In this document: piece by piece, positions 3,045-64,000 of the stretch
How positions within the stretch are numbered: the stretch's first letter is position 1
Layout: each line of letters opens with the position of its first letter
Source: Schmidtea polychroa
Taxonomy: Eukaryota
Length of the DNA stretch: 64,000 nt
Assembly (NCBI GenBank): GCA_044892525.1
Contig: CM097886.1
Location: 82,770,001-82,834,000, forward strand
Direction of reading: 5' to 3'
Made by a program: the position numbers and the translations under genes
The notes under the pieces: model-generated
What the model was told of the DNA's origin: nothing
Seen by the model: only the letters and a program-made list of their open reading frames with translations
Databases searched by the model: none

Positions 3045-3530
3045 TACTATTATTATTTAAAATCTAAATCTAGTAATTGTTTATTACTATTACTATTTTG
3101 GTTCTAATATTAGTAATTGTTTTCTATTTTAGGTAATTTTTAAATACTATTTTTAATTTATCTTTGTTTCTTTCCTAACTTGTCTTTATTTCCTTATCTT
3201 GGCTCCTATTGAACCTCAACATGTCTTCCCCTTAACAAGATTTTCGTCCCGAAAATTAAAGCGGTAAGACAAGATAATTTGCAGCCAAAACTAAAAAATA
3301 AAATATAATATATATAATGCAAGCGTAAAAATTTCAAATCACACAATGCTCAATGTTCATATATACACATAAAACAAATGATCACTAAATGTCTAAAAAA
3401 TGTTTAATAAATGTCCAATCAATAGTGTTCACTGAATGAATAGTTGAATGGATCATGATGGCTGTCGAAGATGCTGGTACTTGAAGACGTATAGCAAATA
3501 GCTAGGTCCATTGATTACATAGCAGAATTG

Positions 3531-4055
3531 CTAATATTTCCTTCTCTGCAGGACCTTGGCATTTTCATTCCGGATTCTTTGTTCTACGATGTCCGGCCTG
3601 TAACTAACCACCAACGTCTCCCGTGTACTTACTTCTTTGTACATGATTGATGAGATGATATAAGAGCCCTCATTAGCGTCCAATACTCCGCAATCGGGGA
3701 AATTGGACACGGCTACTTCATGAATTGGGCCCCCGTCGTATTCCTTGACATGCGGTTTCCATTTACTATCGGGTCTTTGCCACCAACTGGGGTCTTCTCT
3801 GTCGGCATCTTCTCGTATTTTAATTGAATTGAGTTTGCCAATGAATTTGTCTTCTTTCACGACAATAGGCTCCCCTGCAACCATGGGTTCGACCTTTGTT
3901 GTCAATATCTTGGTCAAGGCTGGATCTGGTGGCTGATAGTGAGTTTCTAAGAGATCGTCATCCTCATCCTGGATTGATATCCAAAGCATTTTCTTTTTGG
4001 TACTCTTGGGATCTCCTTTTTTCTCTTTGTAGAGGTAGGAACGTTTTTCTCTTTG
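3531..4055 (-). pseudogene. C-terminal part of accessory ORF of LTR element copy A (homolog of 60647-62809)
   Basis: The 152-aa ORF aligns with the last ~150 aa of the 720-aa ORF, about 21 differences in 149 residues by eye. Homology continues through a frameshift to KEKNVPTSTKRK and stops at 4055. Confidence 0.92.
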
Positions 4056-4536
4056 CTATGCAAAGCTTGGTTTTACCTACCGCTCCAAAGAGAAGGTCGG
4101 GTCCTGGCGGATGAGCTTCAACCTCAAAGCGGTCATAGCATAACTGGTTAGGTTTTTAATCGAAGTATTGTCTTCTGTGTTCCCATGGGGGATCATCAGT
4201 CATCACTACGCTGGTGGCCAAGGATTTGAGCACTATTATGTAGTGCTTCACGGAAATATCAGAGATAAAACCGCTCAATGAATTGATATTAGCGAGTTAT
4301 CAAGCCATTTACATGTTTGTTATGTGTCAGTTGGTTATTTATGCCTCTGACTACATTTATTCTTGCTATTTTTAGTCTACCCTAAAAGACCCATTTCTGA
4401 TCCGGGGTCCGTTAGGGTACTTGCCCTAATAAGCACTCTGTGCCATTAGATGCATTTAGGTTTATTATTTTTTGTTTCATGGTCCTAAGCCCTTCTCCTG
4501 TGTCACAGTCAGTATGTTATCATTAGTATAATATAG

Positions 4537-4688
4537 NNNNNNNNNNNNNNNNNNNNNNNNNNNNNNNNNNNNNNNNNNNNNNNNNNNNNNNNNNNNNNNN
4601 NNNNNNNNNNNNNNNNNNNNNNNNNNNNNNNNNNNNNNNNNNNNNNNNNNNNNNNNNNNNNNNNNNNNNNNNNNNNNNNNNNNNNNNN
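4537..4688. other. Assembly gap (152 N)
   Basis: Run of N. Confidence 1.
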
Positions 4689-4741
4689 CTCTGCTTCACT
4701 GAGATCATGGTGGTTAGAATGGGTTTATGTTGTTATGTATC

Positions 4742-10966: not shown

Positions 10967-11181
10967 GTTCGCTCGACGGGGCTAATGCTTTCAAGATCTT
11001 GGTGACCCGTTCAACCAGTTTTTTTGCTGGTGGTGATTTTTCCGTCTTCATTTTAGCAGAATTCACAACTCTACCATCATTGGTAAACGTGACTTGGAGA
11101 CAATTATCGTCGGCGCTTTCGCAAGTGGAATAATCGTCTTCGTCAGCAATTGAGATGGCTGGCGGCGACAAGGAATCTTCT
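10967..11181 (-). pseudogene. Middle fragment of accessory ORF of LTR element copy A
   Basis: EDSLSPPAISIADEDDYSTCESADDNCLQV..KILKALAP is near-identical to copy B 61285-61500. Confidence 0.92.
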
Positions 11182-12649: not shown

Positions 12650-13678
12650 TCAGTTTTTCTTGTTTTCTATATGAGCCATATATCTCGAGATGAATACGGA
12701 CTTTTTCATCACTGTCGGTGATGTTGCCAATGAGACACTGGTAGGTTTTGAATTGAATTTCACAGTTTCGTCATAACTGGTAGACCTTTCTGTCGTTAAG
12801 GTGGAAAATAGTTTAGTCTTGTCTGTTGAATCGGACATAAAATGTCCAGTATTGATATTCAGTGAATTTTTCAAAGATCCTCTGCGTTTGTTCAAGTTCA
12901 CGGGTGTATTTGATTTGGATTTAGAATCAAATAAAGATGTTATGCTCTCAAATTTAGAGTTAAGTTTCTTCACAGAGTTAGCAATTGTGTTGTTAATCTT
13001 TTGTTTCAATTTGAGCTCATTGTTACTAATGTCAGCACCGTTAGGAAGATTACTTTCTCCATTGAGTGACTGGTTCAGATTTTTAGGATTTGTAGAATTA
13101 TTCGGATTTTCATCGCTATTTTCATCAACATTAAAAAATTTTTTATCCAGTTTTTCCTTTTCATTGTTATTGGCTATATGATTTAGGTTCGATTCAATCA
13201 ATTTAGAATTACCATTTGTACAAGTTGTTGTTTGATTATCATTTTGGGAATTTTTATTACATTCATCAGCTTTCATTGGACAATTACGAGGAGTTAAAAT
13301 ATCGGATTCCTCAATTAGAATTTCTGAAGGACTGGAAGAATCACAAAGTTTTCGGTTAGAAATAGTGGGAATATTGAGTTCAAAATGTAATTTATTAGAC
13401 TTTGTTTTTCCATGAAAGTTTTCGATATTGTTGTTATCATTGGTTGCTTTTAAACTATCAAAATTATTCTCACAGTTCCTGATATCGGGATTATTATCAA
13501 GATTACTGCCTTCCAAAGATTTATCCGAAGTTGGCTCTAAAGTACTTGATCGGAATTTTCCACTAGAATTTAAAAGCAATAGATCATCTTTGTTATCAGT
13601 GCAATCGAGAGAATTTTCTAAATCTTCATTTAAATCATTTATTTCCAGATGTTTTCTTAATAATATTGGAGTGATGGA
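12650..13678 (-). CDS. DAPK: DAPK-family kinase, coding exon 9 (Ser/Asn-rich disordered tail and stop)
   Basis: Acceptor ttttag|TCC at 13679, phase 0. 342 open codons including the listed 309-aa ORF, ending in TGA at 12650. Confidence 0.75.
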   Translation of the reverse strand, partial: SITPILLRKHLEINDLNEDLENSLDCTDNKDDLLLLNSSGKFRSSTLEPTSDKSLEGSNLDNNPDIRNCENNFDSLKATNDNNNIENFHGKTKSNKLHFELNIPTISNRKLCDSSSPSEILIEESDILTPRNCPMKADECNKNSQNDNQTTTCTNGNSKLIESNLNHIANNNEKEKLDKKFFNVDENSDENPNNSTNPKNLNQSLNGESNLPNGADISNNELKLKQKINNTIANSVKKLNSKFESITSLFDSKSKSNTPVNLNKRRGSLKNSLNINTGHFMSDSTDKTKLFSTLTTERSTSYDETVKFNSKPTSVSLATSPTVMKKSVFISRYMAHIENKKN

Positions 13679-39471: not shown

Positions 39472-40793
39472 CAGTAAAACCTCTACTTAAGACCACCTCC
39501 CTAAAGAGACCATCTCTAGTTAAGACCTCTATTTCTTCGGAACCAAATTTACACAGTAGTTTACTGGGACAAATAACCCTCCATAATAGGACCACCCCTC
39601 TCGTTAACACCACTTTTCGTAAAAAATATTTTTAGTTTAAATATTTTTTGTTTAAATATTTTTTTAAAATTAAAATGGGAGTAAAGAAACGAGAAAGGAG
39701 CTTACATTGAGCGAGAAGATGGATGTTATTAAATCTTCTGAGCGAGGAGAAGGACAGAGACTTATTGCAAGACGATTTTCTTGTAGTAAAACGCAAGTCC
39801 ACAATATCATTGTTAACAAAGAAGAAATAAAGGAGCTTTGGAACAATAATGCAAATAAAAAACTAAAACGACTAACAAATCAGCAGTTTAAACTTATCAA
39901 TGAGTATGTTCTAGAGTGGTATAAAAACAAAGTGCTGCGAGGCTTTCCTATTAACGAAGAATTGTTGAAAGCATCAGCTAAGAAGATAGCTATTAGTCTA
40001 AACAACAATGTGTTTAAAGCTAGTAATGGCTGGTTGGAGAAATTCCTCAAGAGAAACAATATTACTTTGAGGGTTTTATCAGGTGAATCTGCTTCCGTAA
40101 AACCATCTGTGCTATCAGATTGGTTTTCGAAAATCCCAGATGTTATTACAAACTATGAAAAGAAAGATATCTACAACATATGTTGTTGAGTTTGTAAAGG
40201 AGTCTTGGAATGCTGTTAAGCCGTCAACAGTTGAGAGCTGTTTTAAAAAATGTGGGTTCTGCTCGGATATCACGGTTAAACCAGATATTATAACTGAGAT
40301 CGAACAAGACGTAACAGATTTAGCTAAGAAGCTTGATTTCGACTTTGACTTTAGTGAGTTTGACATTTCTCTTGAACAAAACTGTTTTGAGAGTGACTGG
40401 GAAGAAAAACTGATTTCTTCTTACACTAGTTTGGATGATGCATCAAGTGAGGTTTCTGAACCAAACGAAGAAGAATCTGATTTACCAAAAATTGATTTAA
40501 AAACATCTTTATCTTATATTCAGCAGATTAAGAATCTTGGAATGGAACTGGGTGACAATAAATTAGTTGACATAATGTTTCAAGCTGAACAAAAGTTGAC
40601 GAATATGATAGTTTTTGATAACAGTGAAGCCAAATCGAAGAGACAAACAACATTAGATGAGTTTTTATAATAAAATCTTCAATTTAAGTCTAGTTTTCTT
40701 TATAAAAATAAAATCCTCTCTAATAGGACCACCTCTAGTAAAGACCACTTTTGGTCCGGGACCAAGAGTGGTCCTATTAGAGAGGTTTCACTG
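39472..40793 (+). mobile_element. Internally deleted pogo/Tigger element (1322 bp)
   Basis: TIRs CAGTAAAACCTCT / AGAGGTTTCACTG with TA on both sides. HTH domains with FKASNGWLEKF. The DDD core is missing between KDIYNI and VEFVKESW. Confidence 0.92.
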
Positions 40794-41821
40794 TATCGTA
40801 AATGGTGCAAATTTGACGTTACAAATGCCGTATAGTTTTCTTTTGCCTGCCCATTGTCAATTATTTTCATGGACGAATGTTTTTGAAAACATTTAATTCA
40901 CTGTCATTAACGTATAAAATCCTACAAATTAAGATAGCTGTGAGATTTCGTTACTTTTCATTTTCGTTAATTACATTCGCTTCTGGTTTTAACGCCATAA
41001 GTAGATCTAATTATTACTAATTACAAAGGTTTATACCCCAAAAAATATGTAAATTTTCAAGGCGATTTTACTATGAACCAAAACGAAATCGACTTGGATA
41101 AATGTTATGAAGGAATGTATTAAAGCAGATATTAGGATAAACAAGTTTTCTGAATTATTTAGTTTTATTAAGGATGGAGATGGGTAAGTTGAAGGGAGGA
41201 CGGAAAATTAATTTTACGTACGAGCTGTTAGTAAATTAGATATTTCAATATTTTAACTGAGAGAATTGACCATGAATTTAAGAACTTGAGGATTAAAGAA
41301 TCTTCATTGTTGAATGATAAGGAGATTCTAACCCCTACAAATGATATGGCAGTAATTATGAACAATTCATTATTAATGAAGCTATCATTTGAAGAATGGT
41401 AACATATGAATCATTGATGTCTATGAGGGAGAATACGATTCGCTTCCCAGTTGAGTTTTTGTATACCCTTAACTTAAATTACTCCAGACTTTATTTCAAA
41501 TAGGGAGTTTCAATAGTATTGCTACACAATATTAAACCTCAAAAGCGGCAAACTCTTTTTATATTTTATATTGTAACTATTAACATTATGCTAATTATAA
41601 ATAATGTGAAAAATGAAACTTAGTAATTTATTAAAACATTAATTAATTATAAAAAAATAACCGTCAATGTTTATTACATGTCTTGACTAAGTACTTCAGT
41701 GAAATTAATCGGTACCAGAAAATGCTAAAAAAATATTTTGTTTCATAAATTAGGAAATTTTCGGCAATCTCTAAATTCAATCAAATGACAAACAAATTTC
41801 TTATTTTCTATATAGATTTTC
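40794..41821 (+). repeat. Left arm of ~1.03 kb inverted repeat containing a Helitron helicase remnant
   Basis: Reverse complement of 43634-44672 with few mismatches. Encodes broken ILTPTN..NNSLL..TYES..FPVEFLYTL. Confidence 0.92.
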
Positions 41822-41837
41822 TGAGAGTTTCTGAGGT

Positions 41838-42104
41838 TTAACTGAGAGAATTGACCAGGAATTTAAGAACTTGAGCATTAAAGAATCTTCATTGTTGAAT
41901 GATAAGGAGATTCTAACCCCTACAAATGACATGGCAGTAATTATGAACAATTCATTATTAATGAAGTCAGCATTTGATGATTAGTAACATATGAATCATG
42001 ATGTATATCGTGGAGAATACGATTCGCTAGCCAGTTGAGTTTTTGTATACCCTTAACTTATATTACTCCAGACTTTATTTCAAATAGGGAGCTTCAATAG
42101 TATT
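41838..42104 (+). repeat. Third (direct) copy of the helicase core within the foldback spacer
   Basis: Direct repeat of about 41255-41520. Confidence 0.88.
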
Positions 42105-43633
42105 TGGACATCCAAAAAAAATGTCAGATTCAAAGAAGGAATTCTCATTTTAAACAGACGACCAACAATCAACACTAGAGAAGAAATCAATGAAATCATC
42201 AATTTGATCTTTTGTCATTGACCTTAAGAATAACTGATAATAAAAAAATTTTAAAAAAATAATAATTAAAATAATATAGAAACTTTAGGAAATATGCTTT
42301 CAAAAGAGGAATAAAAATCAAAATTGACGCATTTATTAAAATATTTAAATCGCGTGTATAAATAATTATTAGATACTTTATTTTATAAATATTTTTTATT
42401 AAAATAGGCTTCTATGAGCTAATAGAAGCTTTAAAAATTTAAAAATTTTGGTTGGTGTTTCATTTTGAATTTTAGAGGATATTTAATTTAATTTTAAATA
42501 AATTTTTTTTTTAAATTCTTCAATAAAAGAAAGTATATCACATTATATTATATTTTTAATCAATGAGAAGAAAGAGGAAATAAAAGAAAGATCAAGATGT
42601 ATTTTCAGGAAGAGGAATGCTAAATTCTAGAAGATTGACAAGGACTATCTTATAGTCGAAAATATTTTTATCAAATACATCATTCGCATCAAAAGGCTTA
42701 AATTATCACTTTATTGTTTTAAATAATAAATGCTGCTACCAAGAAATCATCACTTTATACATTAATATATAGTATGTGTATGACAGCATGTAAAAGTACA
42801 TTCATACGTAGAAATTATATTGACCCTATTTTAAGTGCGAGTTATACAAGAAATATTTTACTTTTTATGGAAACTATTGAAATTTATAAGGCGAGGGTTA
42901 TACACAAGAAATTAGGGTAGTTAAAAATTTGTATATATTATTAGCCTTCATATTTTATAGGATATCATAGAGAATAATTATATAATAAATTTTTGAAATC
43001 TTTGAATTATTAAATACGTGAAATGTAGAAGTAATTGTTTATCCAACAACTTAATATTAGGTTAGTACTAGGAAATACAATTTATAACATTTTGAACAGG
43101 CAGATTTCCGAAATTTCAGGAATTACTGGTTGATAACAGAGGGAAACATTCTATTTTGGAAGCGCATTTTAAATAAAATAGTAGTTTTTAGTTTTTTGTA
43201 TTTTTTAGAGTTTTCTCTTAACAGAAATTATTTGAATTTTTTCGTTTGATTATCACTCGAAAATAATCGACATTCTCCTGTTAATTTGAATGAAATTGTT
43301 ATGTATACCTAAAAACAAGCCGTCAGTCAAATTACAAATCAAATCAATTCAGAATATCCGAAGTCGAATTAAACTCGTATTATTATTGAAAAACTTAATG
43401 CTGATAAACAAAATATCAAAGAAAAGTGTTTTAATCGATTTTCTCATCGGCGAAAAATTGAAAATATTTATGTTAAAATCTTATGTAAAGCTATTGTTGT
43501 TATTTACCAATTCTGTGTATGATTTCTTTTGATAAGGGGTGAAATTTTTCTTTTTTAATTTCCTGAATTTAATGTTAAATCTGATAAAAAAATCAAATTC
43601 TCTGATCAATTAAGCTCGGTCTGATTAGTGTAG

Positions 43634-44672
43634 GAAAACCTATATAGAAAATAAGAAATTTGTTTGTCATTTGATTGAATTTAGAGATTGCCGAAAATTT
43701 CCTAATTTATGAAACAAAATATTTTTTTAGCATTTTCTGGTACCGATTAATTTCACTGAAGTACTTAGTCAAGACATGTAATAAACATTGACGGTTATTT
43801 TTTTATAATTAATTAATGTTTTAATAAATTACTAAGTTTCATTTTTCACATTATTTATAATTAGCATAATATTAATTAGTTACAATATAAAATATAAAGA
43901 CTTTGCCTCTTTTGAGGTTTAATATTGTGTAGCAATACTATTGAAACTCCCTATTTGAAATAAAGTCTGGAGTAATTTAAGTTAAGGGTATACAAAAACT
44001 CAACTGGGAAGCGAATCATATTCTCCCTCATAGACATCAATGATTCATATGTTACCATTCTTCAGATGCTAGCTTCATTAATAATGAATTGTTCATAATT
44101 ACTGCCATATCATTTGTAGGAGTTAGAATCTCCTTATCATTCAACAATGAAGGTTCTTTAATCCTCAAGTTCTTAAATTCCTGGTCAATTCTCTCAGTTA
44201 AAATATTGAAATATCTAATTTACTAACATAGCTCGTACGTAAAATTGATTTTCCGTCCTCCTTCCAATTTACCAATCTTACCAATCCTTAATAAAACTAA
44301 ATAATTCAGAAAACTTGTTTACCTTAATATCTGCTTTAATACATTCCTTCATTCCTTCATAACATTTATCCAAGTCGATTTCGTTTTGGTTTATAGTAAA
44401 ATCGCCTTGAAAATTTACATATTTTTGGGGTATAAACCTTTGTAATTAGTAATAATTAGATCTACTTATGGCGTTAAAACCATAAGCGAAGGTAATTAAC
44501 GAAAATGAAAAGTAACGAAATCTCACAGCTATCTTAATTTGTAGGATTTTATACGTTAATGACAGTGAATTAAATGTTTTCAAAAGCATTCGTCCATGAA
44601 AATAATTGACAATGGGCAGGCAAAAGAAAACTATACGGCATTTGTAACATCAACTTTGCACCATTTACGATA
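43634..44672 (-). repeat. Right arm of the inverted repeat
   Basis: For example, ccatttacgata at 44661-44672 pairs with tatcgtaaatgg at 40794. Confidence 0.92.
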
Positions 44673-47339: not shown

Positions 47340-48330
47340 TTTTATATTCGATAAATTTTACTAATATTTAGATACTGATGCATCACATAATAGCATTGGA
47401 GCTGTCTTGTCGCAGATACAAGAAGGTGAGGAAAGTATATATGTCAGAGTAAGTGCCAGATATAGTGTCAGAGACATTATTGCATAACAAGGAAAGAACA
47501 ACTGGCAATTTATACATTTGTGTTAAAATTTAAACATTATTTACTTGGATCTAAAATTATCGTAAGAACTGATTACCAAGTATTGAAGTGGTTTTTGAAT
47601 TGGGATAGCCCAAATACATCTCAATATTGTGTTCGAAGAGCTGAATTGGAAATTTTTGACATGGTGGTCGAATATAGGAAAGGCAGTGAGCATGTTAAAG
47701 CTGATGCAATGTCACGATTACCGCCTTGTTAACAATATATGATCCCCCATGGTGACCCTAAGAAACGGAGAAATGTCAAAGTATACAAAGACGAAGAGGT
47801 TGAGGAAAATGACCATAAACCTGAAAGGACAATGAATCGAATAATCAAGGAAGAGGATGATTTGGGACAAGATAAGGATGTAAATATTCAGTTTATAGTT
47901 AATTTGATGGAGAAAGGTGATTATTTAACTGAAGAAAATCCAAGTAATTTAAAAAATGGCAGTAAAGAACTAAAAGAATTTATGGTCTCTTAAAACACAT
48001 TGGAGATAGCGAGGTCGTTTACTATATATATGCCGGAATGATAAATATTTAATGGTGGTACCAAGAACTGAAAGAGATTCCATCATTAGGCAGTTTCATT
48101 CCTGTTTATGGCATACAGGTATTGAAAAGACAATTGGAGCAATTAAAAATGAATTTTATTGGCCTGTCATGGATAAAGATATACAGGAAGTTATTGTAAC
48201 CTGTAGGGAATGTTTGCATAATAAGAACTTAAAAGGATGTTAAAGCACCTTTCAAAACATTGATGGTGAAATACCTTTCCAGATAATTGGAATAGACATA
48301 ACAGAACTCTATAAAGAAACAACATGGGTA
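47340..48330 (+). pseudogene. Gypsy pol fragment (RNase H and integrase N-terminus)
   Basis: DTDASHNSIGAVLSQ, VRTDY, EYRKGSEHVKADAMSR, H..HTGIEKT..FYWP..CREC and FQIIGIDI. Confidence 0.9.
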
Positions 48331-48490
48331 ACATTAGTAATGAGGACCATAATTAAACGAATAAATGCAGTGGCGTACGCAGGGGGGGTTACTGGGGACT
48401 TAACCCCCCCCCATGATTCCAACAATAATATAAAAAACTATAATTAATAAATATATAAACTTAAAACAATTTAAGAAATATTCCGAATGC

Positions 48491-50390: not shown

Positions 50391-53300
50391 TTTAAATGAC
50401 ACACCGCCTAAGCGTTAACAACAATGTCTTAATTTAATTTCAAATAAATATCGTAATTGTTGATTAAATGATTAGTATCAGACAAATCATCACGATTACC
50501 TCTTTCGTCATCTAGTCTCATCGTGAAGGGCTTTGTTCCACAATGGATACCCTTCATTTACCTGCTATTTAAATCATCAAATTTTTTAGAGTTATATAAA
50601 TTATCTTAACAATAAATGTACAAATGTATAAATTACATCCTTCCGCACGTCCATCGCATCACGGTCTCCGTTCACAAGCCGTCGGGCGTCTCGTTCCTTA
50701 ATTTCTTTGATTCCACCATTACCAAATGAAATTTGTTTTCTTTTCCATCCATCGGAGATCACTTACCGTCAATTTCCTTTATTTTTTCTTTCATAACTCG
50801 GGTGTTCAGTATGTACTCCTGCATCATTTTATTAGTTGATTGATTTCCTACTCTTTTAATTTTCAGACATATTTGGAGAACTCGCTAAGAGAAAAAGTTG
50901 ATTGGCTCTGCCTTCAAACCACACCTACTAGCCACCACGATTGGATGTGACCAAACTTTGGTTAATAAAATTACTTGCTTTCTTGCAAATATGTCACACT
51001 GATAAATCTGTCATAATCACATTATTATCAAAATTATCCCAATACTTACTATGAATCAGTAAATATATCGATGTTTTTGATATTCGCGAATTTTTGGCAC
51101 TGTCTTTTTCAAGTGAATTTGAAATACCATATCAGGAGAGTCGCATCAAATACTACCAATTTCCGAATTGCTGTGTGTGTACGCCACATGTATTCACACA
51201 TGCACAATCCAATATGCTTCTGCGTGTTACATTATGACGTCTGTTATGTTCTTTTCATGCCTTCCTCGAATGAACACGAAAAATGACCATAAAATCTGAT
51301 CAAAAACACACTAGATCAATCCCGATTGGTCAAATCAAATTACAAAAATCAGTATAAGGGACCATCTCAGTGGACACTTTACCTTTTCAAAAGTTTTTAT
51401 AGGAACTATAGCTCAGCAAATCTTCCGGACAATCTAATCTAGCACAGTGTCAAATTCGGTATTGATAATCAAACTTTGAAACTAAGTAAAATTTTCGCTT
51501 ATTACGTATTATGTAATAATTTTTTATGTTAACGAAATTGAAAATGATATTAGTCCCTTCTTTTTGTAGAGGTCTCGATATTCGGGAACACTCAACTTAC
51601 TGGTTCTTATATATACCAAATATGAATTGATCTGCTATATTACAAAATCCTTTTAATATCCAACCGAATATGCGTGTATGTACTGTGTGAATGTTGTGTT
51701 TCTCTTGCTGTGTTGCGTGTAGGCTTTTGAACGTTTTTGTTTGTCTGTTCGAGTTTTAGCACTAATAAGGATTAACCTTTTTAGTATGTTATCGTGGTTA
51801 AAATTTTGGGCGAAAAAAATGAATTTTACCTCGCTATTTATACTATTTTCGTGTCTATGAAATTAAATTGATATATTTTTATAAGTATACTTAAGAAAAT
51901 AACATATTTTATAAATATGCTTAAAGTATTAAGTATTAATTATTGAAAAATTAATTAAAGTGTTAATTATTGTTATAAAAATGTCCTAAAATTATTATTA
52001 TTTAATTATTATTTTAAAATATCTAAAATTGTTATTCTAAAATCATGTCTTTTAAATTGCCACTTATGTTCTTATAAATCATATGTCTTTCAAAATTATT
52101 ATTATTCTTATAGCATATGTTTTGAAATCAAGATTATAATTTCAAATACTAATTATAATTTAAAATACTAATTAAGATTATTTATTTTGTAATTCTAAAT
52201 AATAATTAGTCCCCGTAATATATTTTATTTTAATGTACATGAACATCGAAACATAAAATAATATTCCAAAAAATAAATAAGATGTACAGTAATAATAATT
52301 GTCAAAAGCATAAACTAATGTACATAGTCAATAATCAAATTGCAATGATAATCGTCACTGTTTTGACTTGTCCGGCTTTGGTTATCTGGGTTCTACGTAG
52401 ATATTGACTCTGAACTTGTTGCTGCCCGTTCTATAGTAGTGAGTCAGTTCGAATTCTTCAATTCTCCTTCCTCTGTCATCCAACACTTTCCTTTTGACAT
52501 TTAATGATATTTTTGAGTTAAAATTTAAATTTTTATAATATTCATTGAGTAATTTTTATAAATATGGTGGAGTTGATACCTGCTTTTTTTCAGGAACCAG
52601 GAAGTACGTCACATCTTTCTATCTCGAGGACCAAAATGGGGTTCAATCACCCAGCTGCTGATCTTATCAGAGCTCTCACAGGAGACTACATGCGATCTGC
52701 CACTGACCTTTTTCAAGAGTTCTTAAATAGTAGAGAAAGTATTGACAATTTCATCAGTATAAAAACGTCATGATATCGCAAGTTAATGTAATAATAGAAT
52801 CTGGTTTCGATAAGACCTGATGTTTCACAGCGATTGCAGATGGCCACAGGGTAGTTTCCTTTAATACTCTTCAAATCGAATTAGATCCCATTTTTTTGTA
52901 TATAAAAATCTCAAAACCCGTCATAAAAATCTACTCAATCTACTTGTTTTAGAAATTTAAATGCACATGAGAACCAACAATCTATTCTTTTATTAATTTG
53001 CCTATATTCACCTAAGGATTTAGAAAAAAACAAATGTCTGACACAGAATCATGTATAAGGGGTATTGAGGCAAAAAGATAGGCCTTGATGCGATATTTTA
53101 TGAAGAGATAGTGCTAAAGATAGGAAGCTGGCCCTAGATAAACCCCAATCGAACCCACTGTTTAAGGATAATACCCATTAAAAATTAATAACATAGAATT
53201 GTAATAATTTTCAAATGACATCAGTGAGTAAAATCTGGAATTATTAATTCCAATAGTCCGCCATGCATGAAGAATTCATCAAGCGTGAAAACGCATAAAA

Positions 53301-56300
53301 GTCGGGGAAAATATATTTTTCGTTTTTGGCCAACGCCCTGGTTATAGTATATAGGAGGGGTCAAATATGAATCCAGCGCAAATTGATTATTTTTTATTAT
53401 TATGATTATTATTAATATCATTTTTGTTATTATTATATTTATCATTATTGTTATGATTATTGGTAGCATTATTATTATTTTTACTTTTCCTTCTTACATA
53501 TATCACCAGTATGGTTAGTCATATTATTGTCATTTCGACTTTTTCATCATCGGGCTTGGTTCACTCGTAACCATTCTCTTATAAATTCTTGTCCTTTTAA
53601 CAAAAACCACTGTCACTCCCGAAAATTCAGACACACAATTAACGTCACTTGATTCATTTTTTGTCTTTTACACTCCGAAGAATCTACAACTAAAACCCTG
53701 CTTCTCGTGTTCAGACAAAAACGTGACCATCCGAACATAGCAGAAGGAAATTTTTCTCTTAATTAAGAAGTTTGACCATCTGGATGAGACTTGGTTCACT
53801 CCCGTAAAGATGAAGGAGTCTACGCAAAAAGTGCTACGCCTAAAGCACTGCAGAGATAATCTGCTGGAGGATAATCGGGCCCAGTGTACCCTGATACGAG
53901 AGCAGTCCCAAGCTCTGTATCAGGCCTACGGATGCAATCTCTTCCCCGCCCATCATCTGGCGGAGGGCACGGCTGTAACTATCACTGCGATTGTTTGAAA
54001 AACGACACAGGTTATGCACAATTTCATGTTGAAGGAACTGTATACTTTTTAATCATTACACAAAGCGGATAATTGCAACAAATCCATATTAATATTTTGT
54101 TATACTTAAAATTTAAATTAAGTTTTTTGACAGAAAAAATAATTGGGTGAATTAACAGACAAGTACCAACATACGAGAATTTGATCGCTTAAGGGTCAAG
54201 TCTTCTATACTAAATCGATAATTTCACTTGAAAGTGAACATTGTACTAAATATTTGTATTAAAAGTTAATTAATATTCGTGACTAGCAACAGTTTTATAA
54301 TTATTTAATTCGTTTATCAAAATCCCATTTTTTCTAATATCCATAATTCAGAGAACAAACGTTCAATTATCAATCTGATACTTTATTTTCTGCCTAGCAA
54401 TCCAAAAACCTGTACAGACATAAATAATCTAATCGCCAACGATCCACCAAATTTATGCCAGACAATAAAAGAAAATTAAAATATTTATAATAAATTGTAC
54501 TAATCTAACATCTTTTTTTAAAATGAAAAATTAATTTAAGAAAGATTGATTTTAAAGAACAATAAATACAGTAATTTGTTAGCCAAACTATTATTTTAAA
54601 ACTAGTTTTATTTCCTAAAAATTTCTAATTAATATTCATTGAAAGTTTAACTATTCTTCATATATTTCTTCCAAAAAATTTCCATGTCTATCAAACATGG
54701 TCAATACACCAGATTCGTAAAGTCTACGCGTAGCAACAGCAGGATCATACTCCCTTGAAAAATGAATTTCAAAATTAACAAATTACATAATAATATGAAT
54801 TATATATTACTCATTGGCTTTTACATATTTTAACATCAAAGGTTCCTTAACATATTTGATCATAAAATAAAATGTTGCAGAGCAACTGATAGCAAGAAAA
54901 ATTCCAAAACGCTTAAGTGACCGTCTTCCTAAATATTTTAATTGAGGTTTATTTAAATGACTCTGGCTCATGTAAAAATATTAGATTGTTTATTTGAAAA
55001 ATATTTCAATTTTGAATTTATTTACACATTTCTTCATTTGAACAAAATTACAAATCGACAAATGTCAGTAAAACATTTATTCGATTATTGATTAATAACT
55101 AATCGAATAAATGAAATCTTTCATAAATGAAATATAAAAATCAATTAAAATTAAAGTTTTTATTATTTTATAAATAATGTCACTTAATAAGATATTTTTT
55201 AATAATTTTAATTTGTTGAGATACAAAGAAATTTATTAGAACACATTTTGTAAAGTCAGTTAATCATCAGGTGAATTAATTTTGCTTTGCTTCACTTATT
55301 AAGGATTTTCCAAATTTTATATTCAATAACCGAAATATTAAGTTATGAGTAAAAAGTTAATACCATATTAAATGGGATTTTGTGTACTTGCTTTTATGGG
55401 GTTTAATGGTGGGTATTTTGCATTACTTTTCTCATTTAGTAATTTACTTAGTAAACACATAATCTTGAGCTTATTAGGGAAAAATAAAATTTTATTCTGT
55501 TTATTAGTCTGTGAGGTAAATATTTGGGCATTTTTCGACCGATTGAAATGGTACAATCATAAATAGACAGAATTTAATTCTCCACAGCAGTGGTTCTCAA
55601 CCCTTTTAAAATGTTGTACCGGTATGTAGTAGACAATATAATGGCGTACCTGTAAATAAATATTTTTAAAAAAACGAGTCCTAAAAGAAAGGGGCAGAGT
55701 GCTTACTATACACAAAAAAACAATAAAGTTCAAAATCATGAAATACTTGTTGAGGTCTGTAAATTAAAGTAAATTTAAATGAAATTTAAGTTGAAAATTT
55801 AATTAAAAAGTAGGTGAAGAAAAAAGACAAATAAAAGCGTGATCATGCACAGAATTGATAGTAAAGGAAAGCATGATGGAATCAGTATTAGGAAATGGCA
55901 AAAGCAGTTGCGAAAGGCAAGAATCCGGAAATCCGAGAAAAATCAATAAATTTTAAAATGATCGAAATTGAATTGGGAAAACGTGACAGGTATAGATTAG
56001 CTAATGGTCAACAAGATTATGATTAGGGATTTATCAGAAAATGGTTAGAAAGGGTCAAAAAGCATTCAAATGTCTTAAAACAGAAAACGTTAATTAATGA
56101 ATTAATTGGCTAATAGAAAACCCAAGCAAATGGGAAACCCGAGCCAATGGAGAACCCGAGAGATGAAGGAAACCCGAGTTGGGTAAACAATGAAAAAAGT
56201 AAATAGAAGGAAGATTTCGGCCCATTAGCGTGACACAATGATTAATTGGAAAAGAACAAGGAGAAGATAGTGCGTGCAGAAAAACCAGACGGGTCATTAA

Positions 56301-57849
56301 TTATCTTTGTTCGTTGGTCCATTATGGGTGACAGCCGAAGCAGCTATGTGGAATCGAATGTCAAGTGACAGATTGGCTCGGCAATAATCATTTGTCATCC
56401 CGATTTCGAAGAGTATATAAGGAATGGGAAAATCAGAGCAAATCGGCATTTTGCCTTAGTTAGGGTAAGAAGAAACGAGAATAGGCGAGAGGTAAAACGA
56501 ATTAAGGAGATTAGGGAAAAAGATATAGAATAGGAATACGAAAAGGCGAAAAAAGGATCGAGTTAAAGAGGAAAAGAAAAACGTTGGTCAAGAGAACCTA
56601 AGGAAATAAAAGGTGAATATTATCTTTGGTCAGAGCATCAACACCGAGCTGAGAATCAGTCAAACTTAACTTTGATTATTAATTGTTTATTGTTGAGAAA
56701 AGAATATATTTTTGTGATTCCAATATACGTTAGGAAGTTCATTGTTTTGATTAAAAGGACACGATGAGTCAGAGGTAACTGACTTAAATAAACTAAAACC
56801 CAACATATTTATTAAGAGTATTTAAATATACATACATATTTAACTTACACTATTTTGTGCAATACGCGATATTTGTTGCGTACGAGTTGTCACCATTGTA
56901 ATTATAAGCAATTATAACCTTCCTTAAACATGAATAAATACATACAAGCTGATGCAAATGACCCCTCAGAGCGGTTATAGGGCGAAAAAGTGTGCAATAT
57001 GAATAAAGTCGAATACCAAGAACATTATTCACGTGCGTTAATCGTCGGAGAAACACGAACTTTGTTCGGCTTTTGGTTGTTAAGAAATGGCAGCTCTGTC
57101 TCTGTTTCAGGATTATGCGTCAGGTTGTTACCAACCACAATAGATGTTGAGGTCTCAATATTTGAGATTCCCAACTTGCTGGTTCTTATATCAAAATGAT
57201 TGATCTCGTACTGTATTTTATTTTATTTTAATCTAAAATAAGACTTGATTATTTTGGGGTCATTGAAAAGAATTTGTGAACGCTATTTATATAAAATTTT
57301 GGGCTACTATTTGTATTATTTATTTATCTTTTGGAAATTAAATAAATATATTTTGTTTTCTATCAATACAAAGATTAGGGTTTAATTGTTCAAAATTGCT
57401 TTCAAAATTATTTTAAATTCCCCCATTATTTATTTAAGCAAAATTATAGAAATTCACCCATTCCGGTCAATTTATATTTATTTGTTTACACTTTTCTGTC
57501 AAAAGAAAAATTATAAAGAAAATTGCTTTTTATTGGTATAAGCAAAATTCTTATTTTATATAATTTCCAAAATTATTATTATTGTTGCTTTAATCATAAA
57601 TTGATAGAAAATGTTATAAATTTAATGATCCCATTATATAATTATTTTTTCATGTAAATCATTTAAGTTAAGTTAACACCCATGTGCGGTGTACAACCAT
57701 CACACTTGCACAATATCTAACAAATGATAAACTTTAGAAAAAATATTGATTTAAAATAGTTTCAATTTATTTTTACACATTAAAATTTATTTTCTTTACA
57801 AATATCCTTCTTAGAAATCAGTCTTTGTAGAAATATTTCATGCCACATT

Positions 57850-58245
57850 TTATATAATTAAATATAAAAATATCATGGAAACGAAATAAGTCCATTGAGA
57901 AAGTGCAATTTGATTGACTGCATTGCACTTATCAGACGCACAATAACAGAAAGCTACAGACACATCCTTTATTCCTTTTGGTTTATAACATCCTTGAGAT
58001 ACTTCGGCTCCAATAATGTCGTTGTAAGTTGTGGAACACTTACGCAAATAATAATTTGAAGATTTAATATAACTTATTTGTTTAAAGCAATATTTAGTTT
58101 TTGTGGGACATGTAACGAGCTGTGATTGGTTAACTGAAATACAATTTTGTTGATTTGGATAGGATAAACATTTATAACATGAGAGCTGATTGGATAATCC
58201 GATTCGCCAAATAAGTAGTATTAAACAGACATTTAAATTATTCAT
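57850..58245 (-). CDS. Ly6/uPAR three-finger protein, probably GPI-anchored
   Basis: Signal peptide, LSCYKC start, internal Cys spacing typical of LU domains, CYCASDKCN end motif and a hydrophobic C-terminal tail. Single exon. Confidence 0.88.
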   Translation of the reverse strand: MNNLNVCLILLIWRIGLSNQLSCYKCLSYPNQQNCISVNQSQLVTCPTKTKYCFKQISYIKSSNYYLRKCSTTYNDIIGAEVSQGCYKPKGIKDVSVAFCYCASDKCNAVNQIALSQWTYFVSMIFLYLII

Positions 58246-58479
58246 TCAGTTTGCATTAAATATTGGCATTTTTTAAATCAATTTTTATTGATATAATAAA
58301 ATGATTCATTTCAAATATAATTAAAAAAATTTATAAAATATAAAATTTAGTCATGATTTTTTATTACGTTTAATTGTATTATTTCATTTTAGAACAGAAA
58401 CTATTGAACTTGACTTGTCATAAGGATAGCTTTCATTATGACTCATTAGTATAACAATAGAACTACTTTATGGAGTATA

Positions 58480-60336
58480 TTTATAGCATTTATACCGAAA
58501 AATGAGTAATTACTGCTAACAAATTATTGTCCAAAATTTTTATGAAATTTTGGAAATTTTTCATTCTAAAATGTCAAAAAAATGTAAAATTAAAATTATT
58601 TTAAAATAAAAATGGAATGGAGACCAAAATGAAATATTGATATAGACGTATGAACAAGAATAGAATTATTAGAAAACAAATAAACAGAAAGAAAATTGTA
58701 TTATTAAACATGAAAGGTACAAAATGCAAATGTGTTGAAAAGTGATAAATGACAGACTTTTAATTTAGAAAACAAGATAGTAATAGATTAGGTTATGGAG
58801 GACAAAGTGGTAAGAACGGATTTGTCGAAAAAGTCTGGGGGTATAGTAAAAAACTATAGTAAAACTCATAGTAAAAAACTATGAGGTATATAAAAATAGA
58901 AAACTCGTAAAATAATTATTTAGGTAAAATAATTATTTTCGGTAAACCACAAAAAAAATCAACAAAATAGATTTTAGATAGCCATTATCATAAGAACATG
59001 ATTAATGATAGTCAAAGGTGGTAAGGATTGGGTAATGAAAAACCCCAAAATGACCGTCCAAAGAATCACCGACATAGTTCAAAAGAAAAAAACTTATTTG
59101 AAAAATCGGCCACCTCGATAAGTAAGGAATAAAAATAAAATAATAAATTAGTAAGAATAATTATTGGTCGTATTTACATACGAAAGACCAGCGGTATATT
59201 GCCAAATTCGTAAGAAAGGATTCGCAGTTAGTATGTCCCCTTATGCCATATCGGTCACCGCCACAGTCAATCGAAAATTAGGGGATCTGGCGTCTGGACC
59301 CACGAAGCTCTTTCAGCGGAGTTTCGGATCCATCCGCCAAGGCTTTTTAAGTGTTTGAAGTCAAATAGAGCAAGTTTTGTTAGGTTCGATAGGTAGGTAG
59401 TCGAACTAACACAAAAACGTTCTATCTGACTCCAAATAAATAATTTATGCGTATAGGTAATAAATAAGAAATATGATTTACAATATTTATTAATGATAAA
59501 AATTACACGATTGTTTATTTGTACAAATTATTCACGCTGCTCTCTGAAGAAAAGAAAACGGTTATGCAAACCGCCCTGAAGAATATTTCTACGAATCAAG
59601 GCTGGCCCTAAATGCGCCAACAGCCCGATATAAGTGAAAGGAAAAAGATAGGGAAAATCACCAAATTTTACGCTATAGAGTCAACCCAGAAATTGGTTAA
59701 CTCTTTTTCAAATAACGATACAACACAAAAATTAGTGATGACGTTATTATATCCCTTATTAATTTAACTTAAATAAATCTTTTATATATATATACTTTAA
59801 AATTACTTAGAAATTGATAACAAAACTAACTGATAAAAATATTCTATGGCTCCGAAGAATTTCGTAATAAATAATTCCAAATTATTGGTTAATCAATAAT
59901 CGTTGATTGACTAAGACTGTTAAATGATGATCTGTCCAAATTTAATGTAACTATCTGTCTCTTAATGCGAGCTAATCAGTTTCGATTTATGTCGACTTTT
60001 TTGAACTACTTTAAATCTGTCGTGTCCGATCTTTTTCTCTCGTTCCTTCACAATGAAATTTTTGTGGTATTTATATTAGTTTATTTGTATTAAATCTATT
60101 TATAGTAATTGTTTAATTCCTATTTTTATTATATATTTTTAAATAATTTCTATAATTCTATTTTTAGTAATTATTTATTACTAATTATATTTTAGTTTTA
60201 ATTTTAGTATTTAATTTCTATTTTTGGTAATTTTAAAGTACTATTTTTATTTTACTTCATATTTTCGTAATTAATTATTATTTTAATTATTATTTAATTT
60301 CGAACCTTCAATTTCGGTTCCTACTGAACCCCAACA
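58480..60336 (-). repeat. Long 3' LTR of copy B (at least 0.9 kb by homology, probably 1.6-1.9 kb)
   Basis: Begins TGTTGG at 60336 after the PPT. AT-rich U3. Homologous to 1-725 and 3047-3221. The CA end was not located with certainty. Confidence 0.6.
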
Positions 60337-60348
60337 TGTCTTCCCCCT
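60337..60348 (-). other. Polypurine tract
   Basis: AGGGGGAAGACA directly before TG; conserved at 3222-3232. Confidence 0.75.
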
Positions 60349-60646
60349 AACAATATTTTCGTCCCGAAAATTAAAGCGGGAAAGACAAGACAATTGCAGC
60401 CAATACATAAAAAATAAAAAATATAAAAATAAAATAAAACAACTGAATAAAATGTATATACATAAAGTAATCAAAGTCAAATTCAAAATAATCAAAGATT
60501 GTTAAACAGAATTAAAAATCAGATTAATCAAATGTTGTTCATAATGTCTATCAATTTGAATATCTGGATTGGATTGAGTTGTCGAAGGTGTTGGGATTGA
60601 GGACATATAGCAAATTGCTAGGTCCATTGAACACATAGCCGAATTG

Positions 60647-62809
60647 CTAGTATTTTCTCCTTTTCATGACCTTGGCACTTTCGTTACGGATCCTTTGTTC
60701 TACAATGTCAGGCCTGTAACTGACCACCAAAGTCTCCCGTGTACTTACCTCTTTGTACACAATTGAGGAGATTATATATGAGCCCTCATTAGCCTCCAAT
60801 ACTCCGTAGTCGGGGAAATTGGATACGGCTACTTCATGGATTGGGCCTCCGTCGTATTCCGTGATACGCGGTTTCCATTTGCTGTCGGGTCTCTGCCACC
60901 AACTAGGATCTTCCCTGTCGAGGTCTTCCCGTATTTTGATTGAATTGCCCCTTCCGACGAACTCGCCTTCCTTTACGATAATAGGCTCTCCTGAAATCGT
61001 GGGTTCACTCTTTGTTGCCAATATCTTGGTCAACGCAGGATCTGGTGGCTGATAGTGGGTTTCTAGGAGATCGTCATCCTCATCTTGGATGGATATCCTA
61101 GGCATCTTCTTTTTCGTGCTCTTAGGAATCTCCGTTTTCCTCTTTGTAGAGGTAGGAACATTTTTCTCCTTGTCCTCTTTCTGGGGGGGTTTCTCCGTTG
61201 GTTTCTTTTTAAACTTCAAGTCTTGTAGCTTGAGTAATGGTGCTACAGCTTGGGGTAATGTTCCCCCTTCAGCTCCTTGTTTGGGTTCACCCAACGGGAC
61301 CAATGCTTTCAGGATCTTGGTGACCCGTTCAACTAACTTTTCTGCTGGCTGGGGTTTTACTACTTCCATTTTAGCCGAATTCACCACTCTGCCGTCATTG
61401 GTAAGGATGACTTGGAGGCAGTTATCGTCTGCACTCTCACAAGTGGCATAGTCGTCTTCATCAGCAATTGAAATGGCTGGCGGCGACAAGGAATCTTCTT
61501 CCACTATTTTCAACAACTTCGCCCTGGGGATATCTTCTTTCACATAGCTCTCCATAGCTAGTGGTTTCTGCCTGCTTGAGGTCCCGGGTTCCATCTGCTT
61601 GATTTGTGAAGACACCACCTCTTTCCGGGTGTCCGGTGAAATGTCGTCGACCCAGATGTCTTGTAGATTATCGTAAATCTCCTTGATGGTAGTTACATCA
61701 TTCTCCGTTTGAAGATCCGAGAAGTGATGTGCTTCTTTACCGGTGACTGCCTTTGCCAAATATGCCAGACGGTAATACCCGTTGCATTTCTTTAGGTCCC
61801 TACTTTCGAGACATTTAGCTGCGCCTAACTCACGGATTCCGAGAGCGCGCTGCATTGGGAATCTAATAACTTCTAGTAGGTCCTTTACTAGCAATCCCAC
61901 GATGATTTTCCCATCGCAGATTTTCCTGATTCGTTCGGCACAGTCTTCTCCGTCGAACTGACCTATTATTTCTTTCTCGGTCATACCATGCGCATGCGAT
62001 TGGTAATGTTTGACCTGTGCTCTGGGGGTGACTCTCGTGTTGAGTATCAAATCGCCATTGAAATGTGAGATTGAAATGGCCACGATTGCCGGTTTCAGGA
62101 ATTGTCGTAGTGTAGCGTAGTGAGCTGCTACGAAAATGGTGAGGTTATCCTCTTGTCTAGGGTCCAAACGCTGTCTAACAAAGGACTTAAATGTTTTAAT
62201 GTCGTTATCGTTGACATTATATGTCCAGTTTGGGTCATTAACCCATCTTGTTTGTGTTTCTCTGTGAGGTTCCAGGATTTCCATTGCTATGATGGTATCT
62301 ATACCTTCACATAACAGTGAGATGTTCTTTTCCCTTCCGTCCCCGTTTTCTATTTCGAGGGTAGTGTGCTTTTGTAGCAAAATGGGGTTTGTGGCGCCAG
62401 GAACATAAACCGTAAATGGTTTGTTAATGGCGTGTATCCACAGATGGTTGGTCAGACCATGTCTGCCAAACTCAGGCATGACCTCGGTAAGCCTAATACT
62501 ACCGTTATGCTTACCCGGGATTCTGGAGATAATCATTTGACGCTTTGGAGCCTCGTCAAATTTGAAATTATTGGGTATGCCTGAACAATGACCGTAAAAC
62601 CAGTGCCTTTGGCCTTTTCTACCTAGCTCCATAACCTGCTTCTCCAGGTTCTTGTAAATGAGTTTTTCTTTTAGTAAGGTTGTAGCACGTATAATGCTAT
62701 GCCTTCCTTGGTATTGGGATATTGGATGGCTCTGCATTCCTGAAATAAAAATCATTAACCATAATATCAGATATACTGATATGCCATAATAGGCTAAAAA
62801 GATATGCAT
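60647..62809 (-). CDS. Accessory protein (720 aa, or 696 aa from ATG 62737): AlkB-like fold, inactive DEDDh exonuclease fold, charged linker and conserved C-terminal domain
   Basis: Intact ORF with a conserved paralog in copy A. Residues ~222-384 align by eye with ISG20/REX4. Confidence 0.85.
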   Translation of the reverse strand: [720 protein letters not shown]

Positions 62810-62935
62810 AAGTCTTATAATAAAAGATCTACATATGCTGAATTTTAATGCTACCTGGAGCTCTACGTAAATATAGATTTTAAGATATATATAAATAGTT
62901 ATATATGATTTTTCCCTCGGGGGAGTCTGTAATTG

Positions 62936-64000
62936 TCATAATTGCGACATCAGTACTCCATCGTAAGCTCTTATGGCTTGTCTAAAATATAGCTTGGTCC
63001 AAATACCCATAGCTATCAGTGTAGTTACTAGCGATAGTACGGCCGATACCGTAATCCATACCCCTACTGGTATTTTCAGGATATATCCTGCATTAAAGTT
63101 TGTGATGGCATTACAATCACAACAGTTTGTCAGGTTTGGGGGCGTTTGACAAGATATTTGTTTGATAGGTGACAATTGTCTAAGATGTTGCTACATTTCG
63201 GGATGTATCACCATGTTCTCTCTGACTACTTTTGGTGGTATTTTCGTTATAACCGGCTGTTTCAGAGGTAGAATCTCCTCAAATACCTCGAACCACCTAT
63301 CGTCTTCCCGTTTCCTCGGACTATAGTATATAACTAAAACCGAATTTTCTACTGACTGATTTAGATACATTTCTTGGGAGGGAGAGTTCTGGTCTAACCA
63401 TAATGTTCCTCTCGTGGTTGATCCGTCTCGAATGCTGATTTTCACTTTCTCCTCCCTGTTAATTTGCTGGCGAAACTTTACTTTATCCCTTTCGTAGGAA
63501 ATCGATATGCGATTTGTGAAATCTGCCGTCCGTAGGATCCAATTTGATACGTGATAGGTATACCAACCACTCTGATATAGCCTTGATGCTGCGACATGCA
63601 GTTTATAATCCGTCTCGGCTTTTAAATCATATAAATCCCACTCTTTTTCTTCTGAATCGAGTTGGCGGATCCGCAAGTACTTGTTGTAGAAATGTAAATT
63701 GAATTTTGTGGCATTATCGCATGTTGTGAGTATGCTAATTCCGTGATACGTTCTTATAAAATGTAAGTGTTCCACTTGCATAGCCATAGGCTGAAAATAT
63801 GCCTTTCTATCCCTTTTTGCCATTGCTAAAGTCATCATACAGCTTATTATCAACAAAAAGGTTACCGATTTTGGAACACCCCGTGATCTCAATGGGTATC
63901 GGTGCTCTTGTGGTTCTTCGGTAGTGTTTAGTTTCACTTGTTTCTCTGGTGCTTTTACTTTTGAGGTTCCTTTTGTTGAGATTTCGCACCTTTTACACCG
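62936..64000 (-). CDS. Env-position type I membrane protein with FN3-like ectodomain; one in-frame TAG at 63191-63193; frame open to the window end
   Basis: ORFs 63191-63937 and 62936-63175 share a frame. Signal-like TFLLIISCMMTLAMA, LYDLKAETDYKLHVAA, CCDC, TM helix VWITVSAVLSLVTTLIAMGIW and a short tail. Confidence 0.75.

Follow-up and report, generated by a model that had tools for sequence, protein, structure and literature searches.

A stretch of 64,000 nucleotides from Schmidtea polychroa (GenBank assembly GCA_044892525.1, contig CM097886.1, positions 82,770,001 to 82,834,000 of the forward strand; hereafter the window) appears to carry the 3′ end of a large long terminal repeat (LTR) retroelement, in two copies that have diverged by about 0.7 synonymous substitutions per site. 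Between the edge of the window and the LTR lie two open reading frames (ORFs), of which ORF A resembles a surface protein and ORF B is predicted to be a fusion of an AlkB fold with an ISG20-type exonuclease fold, acting as an RNA-binding accessory protein against host silencing or RNA decay. We put the probability of this explanation as a whole at roughly 55%, and its parts carry different weights: that the ORF A/ORF B unit is cargo of an LTR retroelement is very likely, a putative RNA-binding role for ORF B is probable, and a role specifically in counter-defence is possible rather than probable.

The probable 3′ end of an LTR retroelement in two copies

The DNA of the window is AT-rich (GC mostly 0.22-0.37) and crowded with transposon remains. 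On the minus strand, the path from the window edge leads through ORF A, an in-frame TAG, a further 84 codons, a stop and a spacer to ORF B, and some 300 nt past the ORF B stop it reaches a purine tract and then TG, at 60336. The features that define the element and its second copy are as follows.

64000-62936, minus strand: ORF A, both parts, from sequence features
62738..62935, minus strand: AT-rich spacer (GC 0.28), with a pyrimidine-rich, splice-acceptor-like site at its end, 2 nt before the ORF B ATG
62737-60647, minus strand: ORF B, 696 aa, from sequence features
60337..60348, minus strand: polypurine tract, directly before the LTR-like start
59459..60336, minus strand: LTR-like segment homologous to copy 2, with an AT-rich, U3-like part
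59780-59794, minus strand: TATA-like run in the LTR-like segment
59545-59704, minus strand: structured block in the LTR-like segment
59677-59704, minus strand: hairpin within the structured block
59519, minus strand: AATAAA in the LTR-like segment
1..723, minus strand: LTR-like segment of copy 2, running past the left window edge
3045..4057, minus strand: ORF B 3′ end, 3′ untranslated region (UTR), polypurine tract and LTR start (3221) of copy 2, from homology to the first copy
10967..11181, minus strand: 5′-most surviving ORF B fragment of copy 2 (linker region), where homology stops

We consider the LTR-retroelement 3′ end to be supported because four observations converge on it, namely the polypurine tract with its TG, the second copy, the structured block in the LTR and the purifying selection on ORF B. 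The geometry of polypurine tract and TG is the same in both copies, and the two account for two of the four matches in the window to a GGGG-containing purine run followed by TGT. The block around the tract and TG is 87% identical between the copies; identity is lower in the 3′ UTR, at 65%, and in the U3-like part, at 63-72%. A second conserved block within the LTR is 80% identical, and a 221-nt block there folds with a z of -3.2, a value reached by none of 200 shuffles; its hairpin has 10 pairs, three of which have changed on both sides between the copies and none of which is broken. The ORFs of the element also differ from host-like ORFs in their GC content at third codon positions (GC3), which is 0.42-0.49 as against 0.24-0.28.

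Copy 2 survives as three pieces (1-723, 3045-4057 and 10967-11181), having been interrupted by two insertions, a Tigger-like DNA transposon and a non-LTR element. Using tblastn and the ORF B family profile, its ORF B pieces were found to correspond to window positions 60650-61172 and 61285-61499, in the non-enzymatic C-terminal part, and neither the AlkB nor the exonuclease fold was found in copy 2. An earlier reading of this DNA, made from the sequence alone, had held that the enzyme-fold protein was conserved between the two copies, which must be given up in that form. What the copies do reveal is strong purifying selection on the linker and C-terminal part of ORF B, with dN/dS of about 0.10 (0.102 and 0.103 over 217 codons; Fisher p 7e-25) at a dS of 0.70-0.76. 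Together with 77 clusters of homologues outside the window, this upholds the suggestion in that reading that ORF B is maintained cargo. Its two non-standard genes are likewise borne out, as minus-strand ORFs, and its LTR retroelement with non-standard cargo stands as far as polypurine tract, TG and second copy go; no pol of this element lies within the window, ORF A running off the edge at 64000.

The acceptor-like site at the end of the spacer suggests, as a sequence feature, that ORF B could be expressed from a spliced subgenomic mRNA. By eye, the predicted N-termini of five homologues (P0014, P0036, P0038, P0065 and P0075) resemble the window in running through hydrophobic, acceptor-like stretches ahead of the point where the alignment begins, which hints that splicing may be general in the ORF B family.

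Both interruptions of copy 2 are recognisable. A Tigger/pogo-like DNA transposon (724-3044, plus strand) with CENP-B, HTH_Tnp_Tc5 and DDE_1 domains lies inside the copy 2 LTR; it is frameshifted and has terminal inverted repeats and a TA duplication. A non-LTR retrotransposon (about 4060-10966, minus strand) has an open 1105-aa ORF with Ulp1 protease, reverse transcriptase and zf-RVT domains, and further ORFs upstream at 8060-10981; from its architecture we take it to be NeSL-like. The segment at 52375-52550 was considered as a possible third copy of ORF B, represented by its tail, and was set aside when the ORF B family and tail profiles gave it no support. A tRNA scan of the window found none, and an Rfam scan of 51000-64000 gave 0 matches.

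ORF B: an AlkB fold joined to an exonuclease fold

The model and fold comparisons divide ORF B into three parts.

62264..62737, minus strand: domain 1, aa 1-158, AlkB/2-oxoglutarate (2OG)-Fe(II) double-stranded beta-helix fold, from the model and fold comparison
61634..62170, minus strand: domain 2, aa 190-368, ISG20/ISG20L2/REX4-type DEDDh exonuclease fold, from profile and fold
60647..61633, minus strand: K/E/P/D-rich charged linker and C-terminal region, the only part common to copy 2

In the structure model (predicted local distance difference test, pLDDT, 91; predicted template modelling score, pTM, 0.88), residues 1-159 match OsALKBH1 with a Z of 11.1 (root-mean-square deviation, rmsd, 3.1; 138 aligned), followed by ALKBH6 and prolyl 4-hydroxylase (P4H), each at Z 11.0, and ALKBH3 at Z 10.6; Foldseek agrees with the AlkB/prolyl-hydroxylase reading, more weakly. 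The modelled domain has AlkB-type N-terminal elements, with its subfamily of origin tied. A dUTPase-like reading of domain 1 made by eye was dropped, as the fold search gave AlkB and P4H folds with no dUTPase among the matches listed. For domain 2, residues 200-366 match ISG20 with a Z of 18.4 (rmsd 2.7, 161 aligned), and ISG20L2 was reached both by profile (E 3.8e-32) and by a PDB sequence search (E 0.0054). Atlas scored RNase_T at 0.92, the solved structures close to domain 2 include SDN1, a small RNA degrading nuclease (E 1e-18; Z 13.6), and Exuperantia is among the fold matches of ORF B at Z 10.5. Plainer sequence searches were unproductive: Pfam on ORF B alone gave nothing near cut-off, a word-index search found no homologue, PHROGs gave nothing at E<0.08, a PDB sequence search with domain 1 returned no useful match, and no phage match was found from which to build a profile linking this domain to AlkB.

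The sequence-only reading had described a protein of about 700 aa with apparently dead nucleic-acid-enzyme folds, and this copy fits that description, with 696 aa and two folds that lack their canonical catalytic residues. At the exonuclease columns (canonically D, E, D, H, D) the window protein has A, H, L, L, D, one of five being kept, and its domain 1 has no HxD iron motif. To place this copy we turned to its relatives. A full phmmer scan gave homologues in 77 clusters (under 50% identity) at E<=0.001 and in 30 at E<=1e-10, many of them covering both domains. The alignment has 73 rows, comprising 71 of the 77 clusters, P0080 and the window protein, with P0016, P0047, P0062, P0068, P0069 and P0074 left out; RNase_T was matched at E<=1 by 31 of these rows, and pairwise identity to the window ORF B is 16-33%. 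Among the 52 rows with complete exonuclease sites (21 further rows are partial), 35 are intact (DE[D/E]HD) and 17 degenerate, with 0-2 residues kept. P0008 and P0009 are examples of intact homologues. The AlkB half is non-canonical throughout: 52 of the 53 rows covering it are without HxD/E on strand II, one row having the motif, and manual strand mapping of the same 53 rows found no conserved distal His or 2OG-binding Arg column at the expected AlkB strands. Other positions are widely kept in those rows, namely His102 (47), Ser/Thr126 (48), Glu/Asp153 (50), Pro55 (50), Asn56 (45) and Arg66 (30).

The double pseudo-enzyme of the sequence-only reading is therefore an account of this copy, and the family is one in which a non-canonical AlkB fold is joined to an often intact exonuclease. 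A quick, unrooted tree with long branches was built from 50 of the 73 rows without their catalytic columns. In it, the window protein falls inside a 10-row clade in which all members are degenerate, with a Shimodaira-Hasegawa-like approximate likelihood ratio test (SH-aLRT) value of 96, and since it sits there we regard the exonuclease loss as old and maintained. The intact/degenerate label changes four times on this tree, at least two of the changes being forced by starred branches. None of six exact window translations was present in the protein collection, and prokaryotic genome scans for relatives gave 12 and 7 pattern matches, none of them confirmed. A short beta-rich C-terminal motif (ORF B aa about 645-675) seems by eye to be common to many homologue tails; a tail profile scored the window ORF B tail only at E 2.5.

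ORF A: a putative surface-type protein

ORF A is interrupted in this copy and was read in three parts.

63194..64000, minus strand: 5′-open part, 269 aa, with a signal-like stretch and a two-beta-sandwich ectodomain
63191..63193, minus strand: in-frame TAG, parting ectodomain from membrane anchor in this copy
62936..63190, minus strand: continuation with a Cys cluster, one sequon, a transmembrane helix and a short tail; stop at 62936-62938

The start of the 5′-open part is probably the C-terminal end of a longer polyprotein. The internal signal-like stretch (63818-63871) has basic residues before a hydrophobic run and an A-x-A end, and is followed by an ectodomain of two immunoglobulin (Ig)/fibronectin type III (FN3)-like beta-sandwiches with two N-glycosylation sequons before the TAG, making three sequons in total after the signal. 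The TAG is either an inactivating lesion or a leaky stop. Past it, the transmembrane helix lies at about 62996-63070 (hydropathy about 2.0), and the short tail holds what we take to be a YxxPhi-like motif. Overall, ORF A has the look of a type I membrane protein whose two Ig/FN3-like domains are weakly supported. The sequence-only reading had called it an FN3-like membrane protein; the signal-like stretch, beta-sandwich ectodomain and transmembrane helix bear out a membrane protein, and the FN3 label is weak: the single-sequence model has two sandwiches at a pLDDT of 48, its best fold match (Z 7.7) is tied between fibronectin and other Ig-like domains, Atlas gave fn3 at 0.92 with 158 shared features and a weak recognition of 1813, and Foldseek gave a best E of 6e-3, with none at E<=0.001 and mostly FN3 receptors in the top rows. 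Pfam gave no family at E<=0.05 and no fn3 match, and a PDB sequence search gave no useful match. No fusogen is among the structural matches listed for this low-confidence model, and the ectodomain has no R-x-K/R-R site.

The far end of the LTR and a Ly6/uPAR ORF

By homology the LTR is at least 878 bp long, and it would be 3192 bp if it ended at 57145. Two features depend on this choice.

57145..59458, minus strand: possible distal LTR part, with a candidate terminus at 57145
57850..58245, minus strand: intronless Ly6/uPAR (Quiver-like) ORF, 131 aa (PF17064 QVR, E 1.5e-8)

The best candidate for the end is 57145, where the LTR start recurs as an inverted repeat anchored on TG; this was spotted post hoc, and 14 of 300 shuffles did as well against the start of the same copy and one of 300 against the start of copy 2. 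About 65 nt there match a TG-starting end at 51565 (78%, E 1e-6), and the terminus at 57145 may instead belong to a neighbouring element. Alternative ends are 58416 and 55748. The fading of strand skew near 58500 speaks for an end near 58416-58500 and against 57145. The end at 58480 given by the sequence-only reading has neither a TG terminus nor homology support and was rejected.

The Ly6/uPAR ORF has a signal-like N-terminus, a 10-Cys domain and a hydrophobic C-terminus, and a PDB sequence search with it gave no useful match. It possibly lies inside the LTR, but only if the LTR ends at 57145; otherwise it is a host gene directly downstream of the LTR promoter, and its host-like GC3 of 0.24 weighs against the longer LTR. 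Segments 51565-52250 and 55748-57144 begin with a similar TG terminus. The ends at 51565 and 57145 share weaker colinear blocks besides the 65 nt, and between 55748-57144 and 58500-59500 there is a likeness of strand skew along with a weak, colinear similarity (E 0.02-0.14). It is possible that 51565-52250 and 55748-57144 are related LTR remnants.

Proposed mechanism and points against it

We propose that pol is located past 64000, with its end in ORF A, and that ORF B, translated from the spliced message suggested above, would bind RNA 3′ ends and counter host silencing or decay. The exonuclease fold would clamp the 3′ ends, and the non-catalytic AlkB fold could supply a pocket for nucleic acid or bases, remodelled around His102/Thr126/Glu153. 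Family members with an intact site would trim or destroy the bound RNA, be it host small RNAs or replication by-products, and degenerate members, including the window ORF B, would hold and shield it, so that element RNA is protected from silencing or decay. ORF A would be a displayed type I glycoprotein that mediates attachment or works as a receptor decoy, not a fusogen; in the copy studied here it may be in decay. We favour counter-silencing at RNA 3′ ends because of the kinship of domain 2 with ISG20 and SDN1, the inactive DEDD proteins of PIWI-interacting RNA (piRNA) pathways and the piRNA pressure on planarian Gypsy elements, and because the family diverges fast with repeated catalytic loss.

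Several observations weigh against this proposal. Pol, the 5′ LTR, the primer-binding site and target-site duplications were not seen within the window, off whose edge the element runs, and the covariation in the LTR hairpin, coming from two sequences, is not significant against shuffles (61/500). The closest solved relatives of domain 2 are ISG20L2 and ISG20, not SDN1. Profile comparison of domain 1 with E. coli AlkB gave a probability of 0.1%, the AlkB assignment being one of structure alone, and the lost AlkB ligands were mapped by manual strand-by-strand reading. A word-index search, covering near-length and longer proteins, found no homologue of ORF A, and its model is poor. The 77 homologues were compared as protein sequences, several of them encoded on contigs of 12-30 kb; of 24 that were looked up, none had an informative name and one had a UniParc accession.

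Alternative explanations

ORF B might instead be a replication or packaging chaperone that binds the RNA of its own element, for example the structured LTR block, for ribonucleoprotein assembly, transport or 3′-end processing; it would then be comparable to Exuperantia, Maelstrom and EXD1, which we take to be pseudo-nucleases of this kind. The conserved structured block and the Exuperantia fold match (Z 10.5) agree with such a role. So do the 3′-end processing proposed for retroelement DEDDy proteins (PMC5408684) and the exaptation of inactivated dioxygenases to non-enzymatic roles in poxviruses (10.1101/2022.11.22.517515). We nevertheless think a chaperone somewhat unlikely, since identities of 16-33% and a catalytic site lost more than once (four changes, at least two forced) would fit conflict with the host better. 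Another possibility for domain 1 is that it has a rebuilt active or metal site, which would make the family a new two-activity RNA enzyme whose exonuclease half alone was lost in this clade. The residues kept among the 53 rows (His102, Ser/Thr126, Glu/Asp153, Pro55, Asn56 and Arg66) would, by fold analogy, lie on adjacent strands of one sheet, but with HxD/E in one row, no conserved distal His or 2OG-binding Arg column, and a buried His-Glu pair that can be structural alone, we find it very improbable.

The unit as a whole could also derive from an LTR element without being autonomous, be a fragment of some other virus-like element, or represent a repeat-borne host gene family. There is no pol in the window, a search for longer polyprotein relatives of ORF A found none, the homologues were compared outside their genomic context and the LTR 3′ end is ambiguous, all of which suits such an origin. 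It is made quite unlikely by the polypurine tract and TG in both copies, by long unbroken ORFs of non-host composition, by an ORF A that is open at its 5′ end with a basic motif we assume to be typical of integrase C-termini, and by the absence of relatives from the prokaryotic genome scans and PHROGs. A similarly low likelihood attaches to ORF A being a true env equivalent that drives particle entry, its TAG being a programmed readthrough site giving secreted and anchored forms. Its position is env-like, it has the signal, sequons, transmembrane helix and tail, and 84 codons are open past the TAG, which is directly followed by CAA, presumably a readthrough context. However, it has no R-x-K/R-R site in its ectodomain, the fold searches listed no fusion protein and gave a fold resembling tandem FN3/Ig domains, and a single copy does not separate lesion from readthrough.

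A more far-reaching version of the retroelement reading, in which we would place little confidence, is that the element belongs to an invertebrate lineage of provirus-like LTR elements not described before. This lineage would be marked by an AlkB-fold/ISG20 fusion that switches back and forth between two states, active nuclease of small RNAs and dead shield for RNA. The element itself would also display two host-like surface proteins, a tandem-FN3 receptor mimic at the env position and the product of an intronless Ly6/uPAR gene in a 3.2-kb LTR (57145-60336). If that placement were true, the Ly6/uPAR gene would be duplicated at every replication and would be a rare instance of a surface-protein gene riding an LTR.

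Other elements in the window

Inverted repeats of about 1 kb with 96% identity and internal duplications at 40794-44672 form a foldback-like element, and next to it, at 39674-40670, lies another pogo-like remnant. Fragments resembling a Gypsy-type RNase H/integrase, degraded and seen by eye at 47400-48350 (plus strand), and a retropepsin fragment at 25020-25529 (minus strand) are unlinked to the element studied here. A 342-aa low-complexity, host-like exon at 12650-13678 (minus strand) has no Pfam match.

Comparison with known systems

For most of the extra ORFs that LTR elements of invertebrates carry, there is no explanation. The ORF B family, with its 77 clusters, offers natural active and dead exonuclease members on one scaffold, and so permits a direct comparison of two ways in which a retroelement might oppose piRNA or RNA-decay pathways, the destruction of RNA and its protection. 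Planarian Gypsy elements are under piRNA control (PMC8532177). In the literature, of which few subscription papers were covered, we came across neither an AlkB-fold/ISG20 fusion nor FN3 cargo described for an LTR element; each ingredient has a separate precedent, and the cargo protein family is apparently undescribed.

One close comparison is with the giant planarian Gypsy element Burro/GYPSM1 (PMC6431247), which is likewise large, bounded by LTRs and equipped with accessory cargo; it too sits in an AT-rich genome and is open to a provirus-like reading. As described there, it has a fusion-glycoprotein env in frame between gag and pol, cargo that includes AIR1, Smc, MATH, BIR, ankyrin, BCL2, SUMO-like and dUTPase domains, and, in Burro, an ORF1 of about 5000 aa with Gag and BIR/BCL2/ankyrin/MATH; none of Burro's described domains was found within the window. 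In a whole-text term search of that paper, AlkB, dioxygenase and fibronectin were absent and DEDD came up solely in connection with rotifer elements; AlkB, DEDDh and FN3 cargo does not figure in its account of Burro. Multi-kb LTRs are a further mark of Burro/GYPSM1. In the passages of PMC11410931 that were consulted, Burro is mentioned in name only.

In arrangement, the element is comparable to the LTR elements Juno and Vesta of bdelloid rotifers (PMC5408684), which encode a 3′-5′ exonuclease downstream of pol and ahead of the 3′ LTR in a separate, typically spliced ORF3, and whose sister families have ORF3s bearing transmembrane segments. The same source describes spliced ORF3 messages, an intact DEDDy ORF3 and inactive DEDD proteins in piRNA biogenesis. 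The rotifer exonuclease is RNase D-like, of DEDDy type, intact, and stand-alone or fused to GDSL, whereas here an ISG20/REX4-type DEDDh fold is joined to an AlkB fold and is degenerate in this clade. Among cellular proteins, ISG20, ISG20L2, REX4 and SDN1 are active DEDDh exoribonucleases without an AlkB-fold partner, at 13-16% identity to domain 2.

For the other half of ORF B, a large long-LTR Ty3/Gypsy (Tat/Ogre) element of Phalaenopsis also has an extra ORF of the AlkB superfamily, an N6-methyladenosine (m6A) demethylase reported as functional and recently captured (PMC9289625). That AlkB is detectable by sequence, whereas the domain here is detectable by structure only, is without HxD and is fused to an exonuclease. 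Closer in its loss of ligands is a set of poxvirus proteins derived from inactivated prolyl hydroxylases or dioxygenases (C4L, C10L, A37R, F11L and A51R; 10.1101/2022.11.22.517515), in which, as here, a viral genome has kept a 2OG-Fe(II) fold after loss of the metal ligands. A C4L/C10L-like protein came up at rank 42 in a viral fold search with ORF B. Poxviruses are DNA viruses and their proteins have no exonuclease fusion; the likeness is one of fold alone and does not imply common origin. If our reading of ORF B is right, retroelements would join poxviruses as a case in which inactivated 2OG-Fe(II) folds have been exapted.

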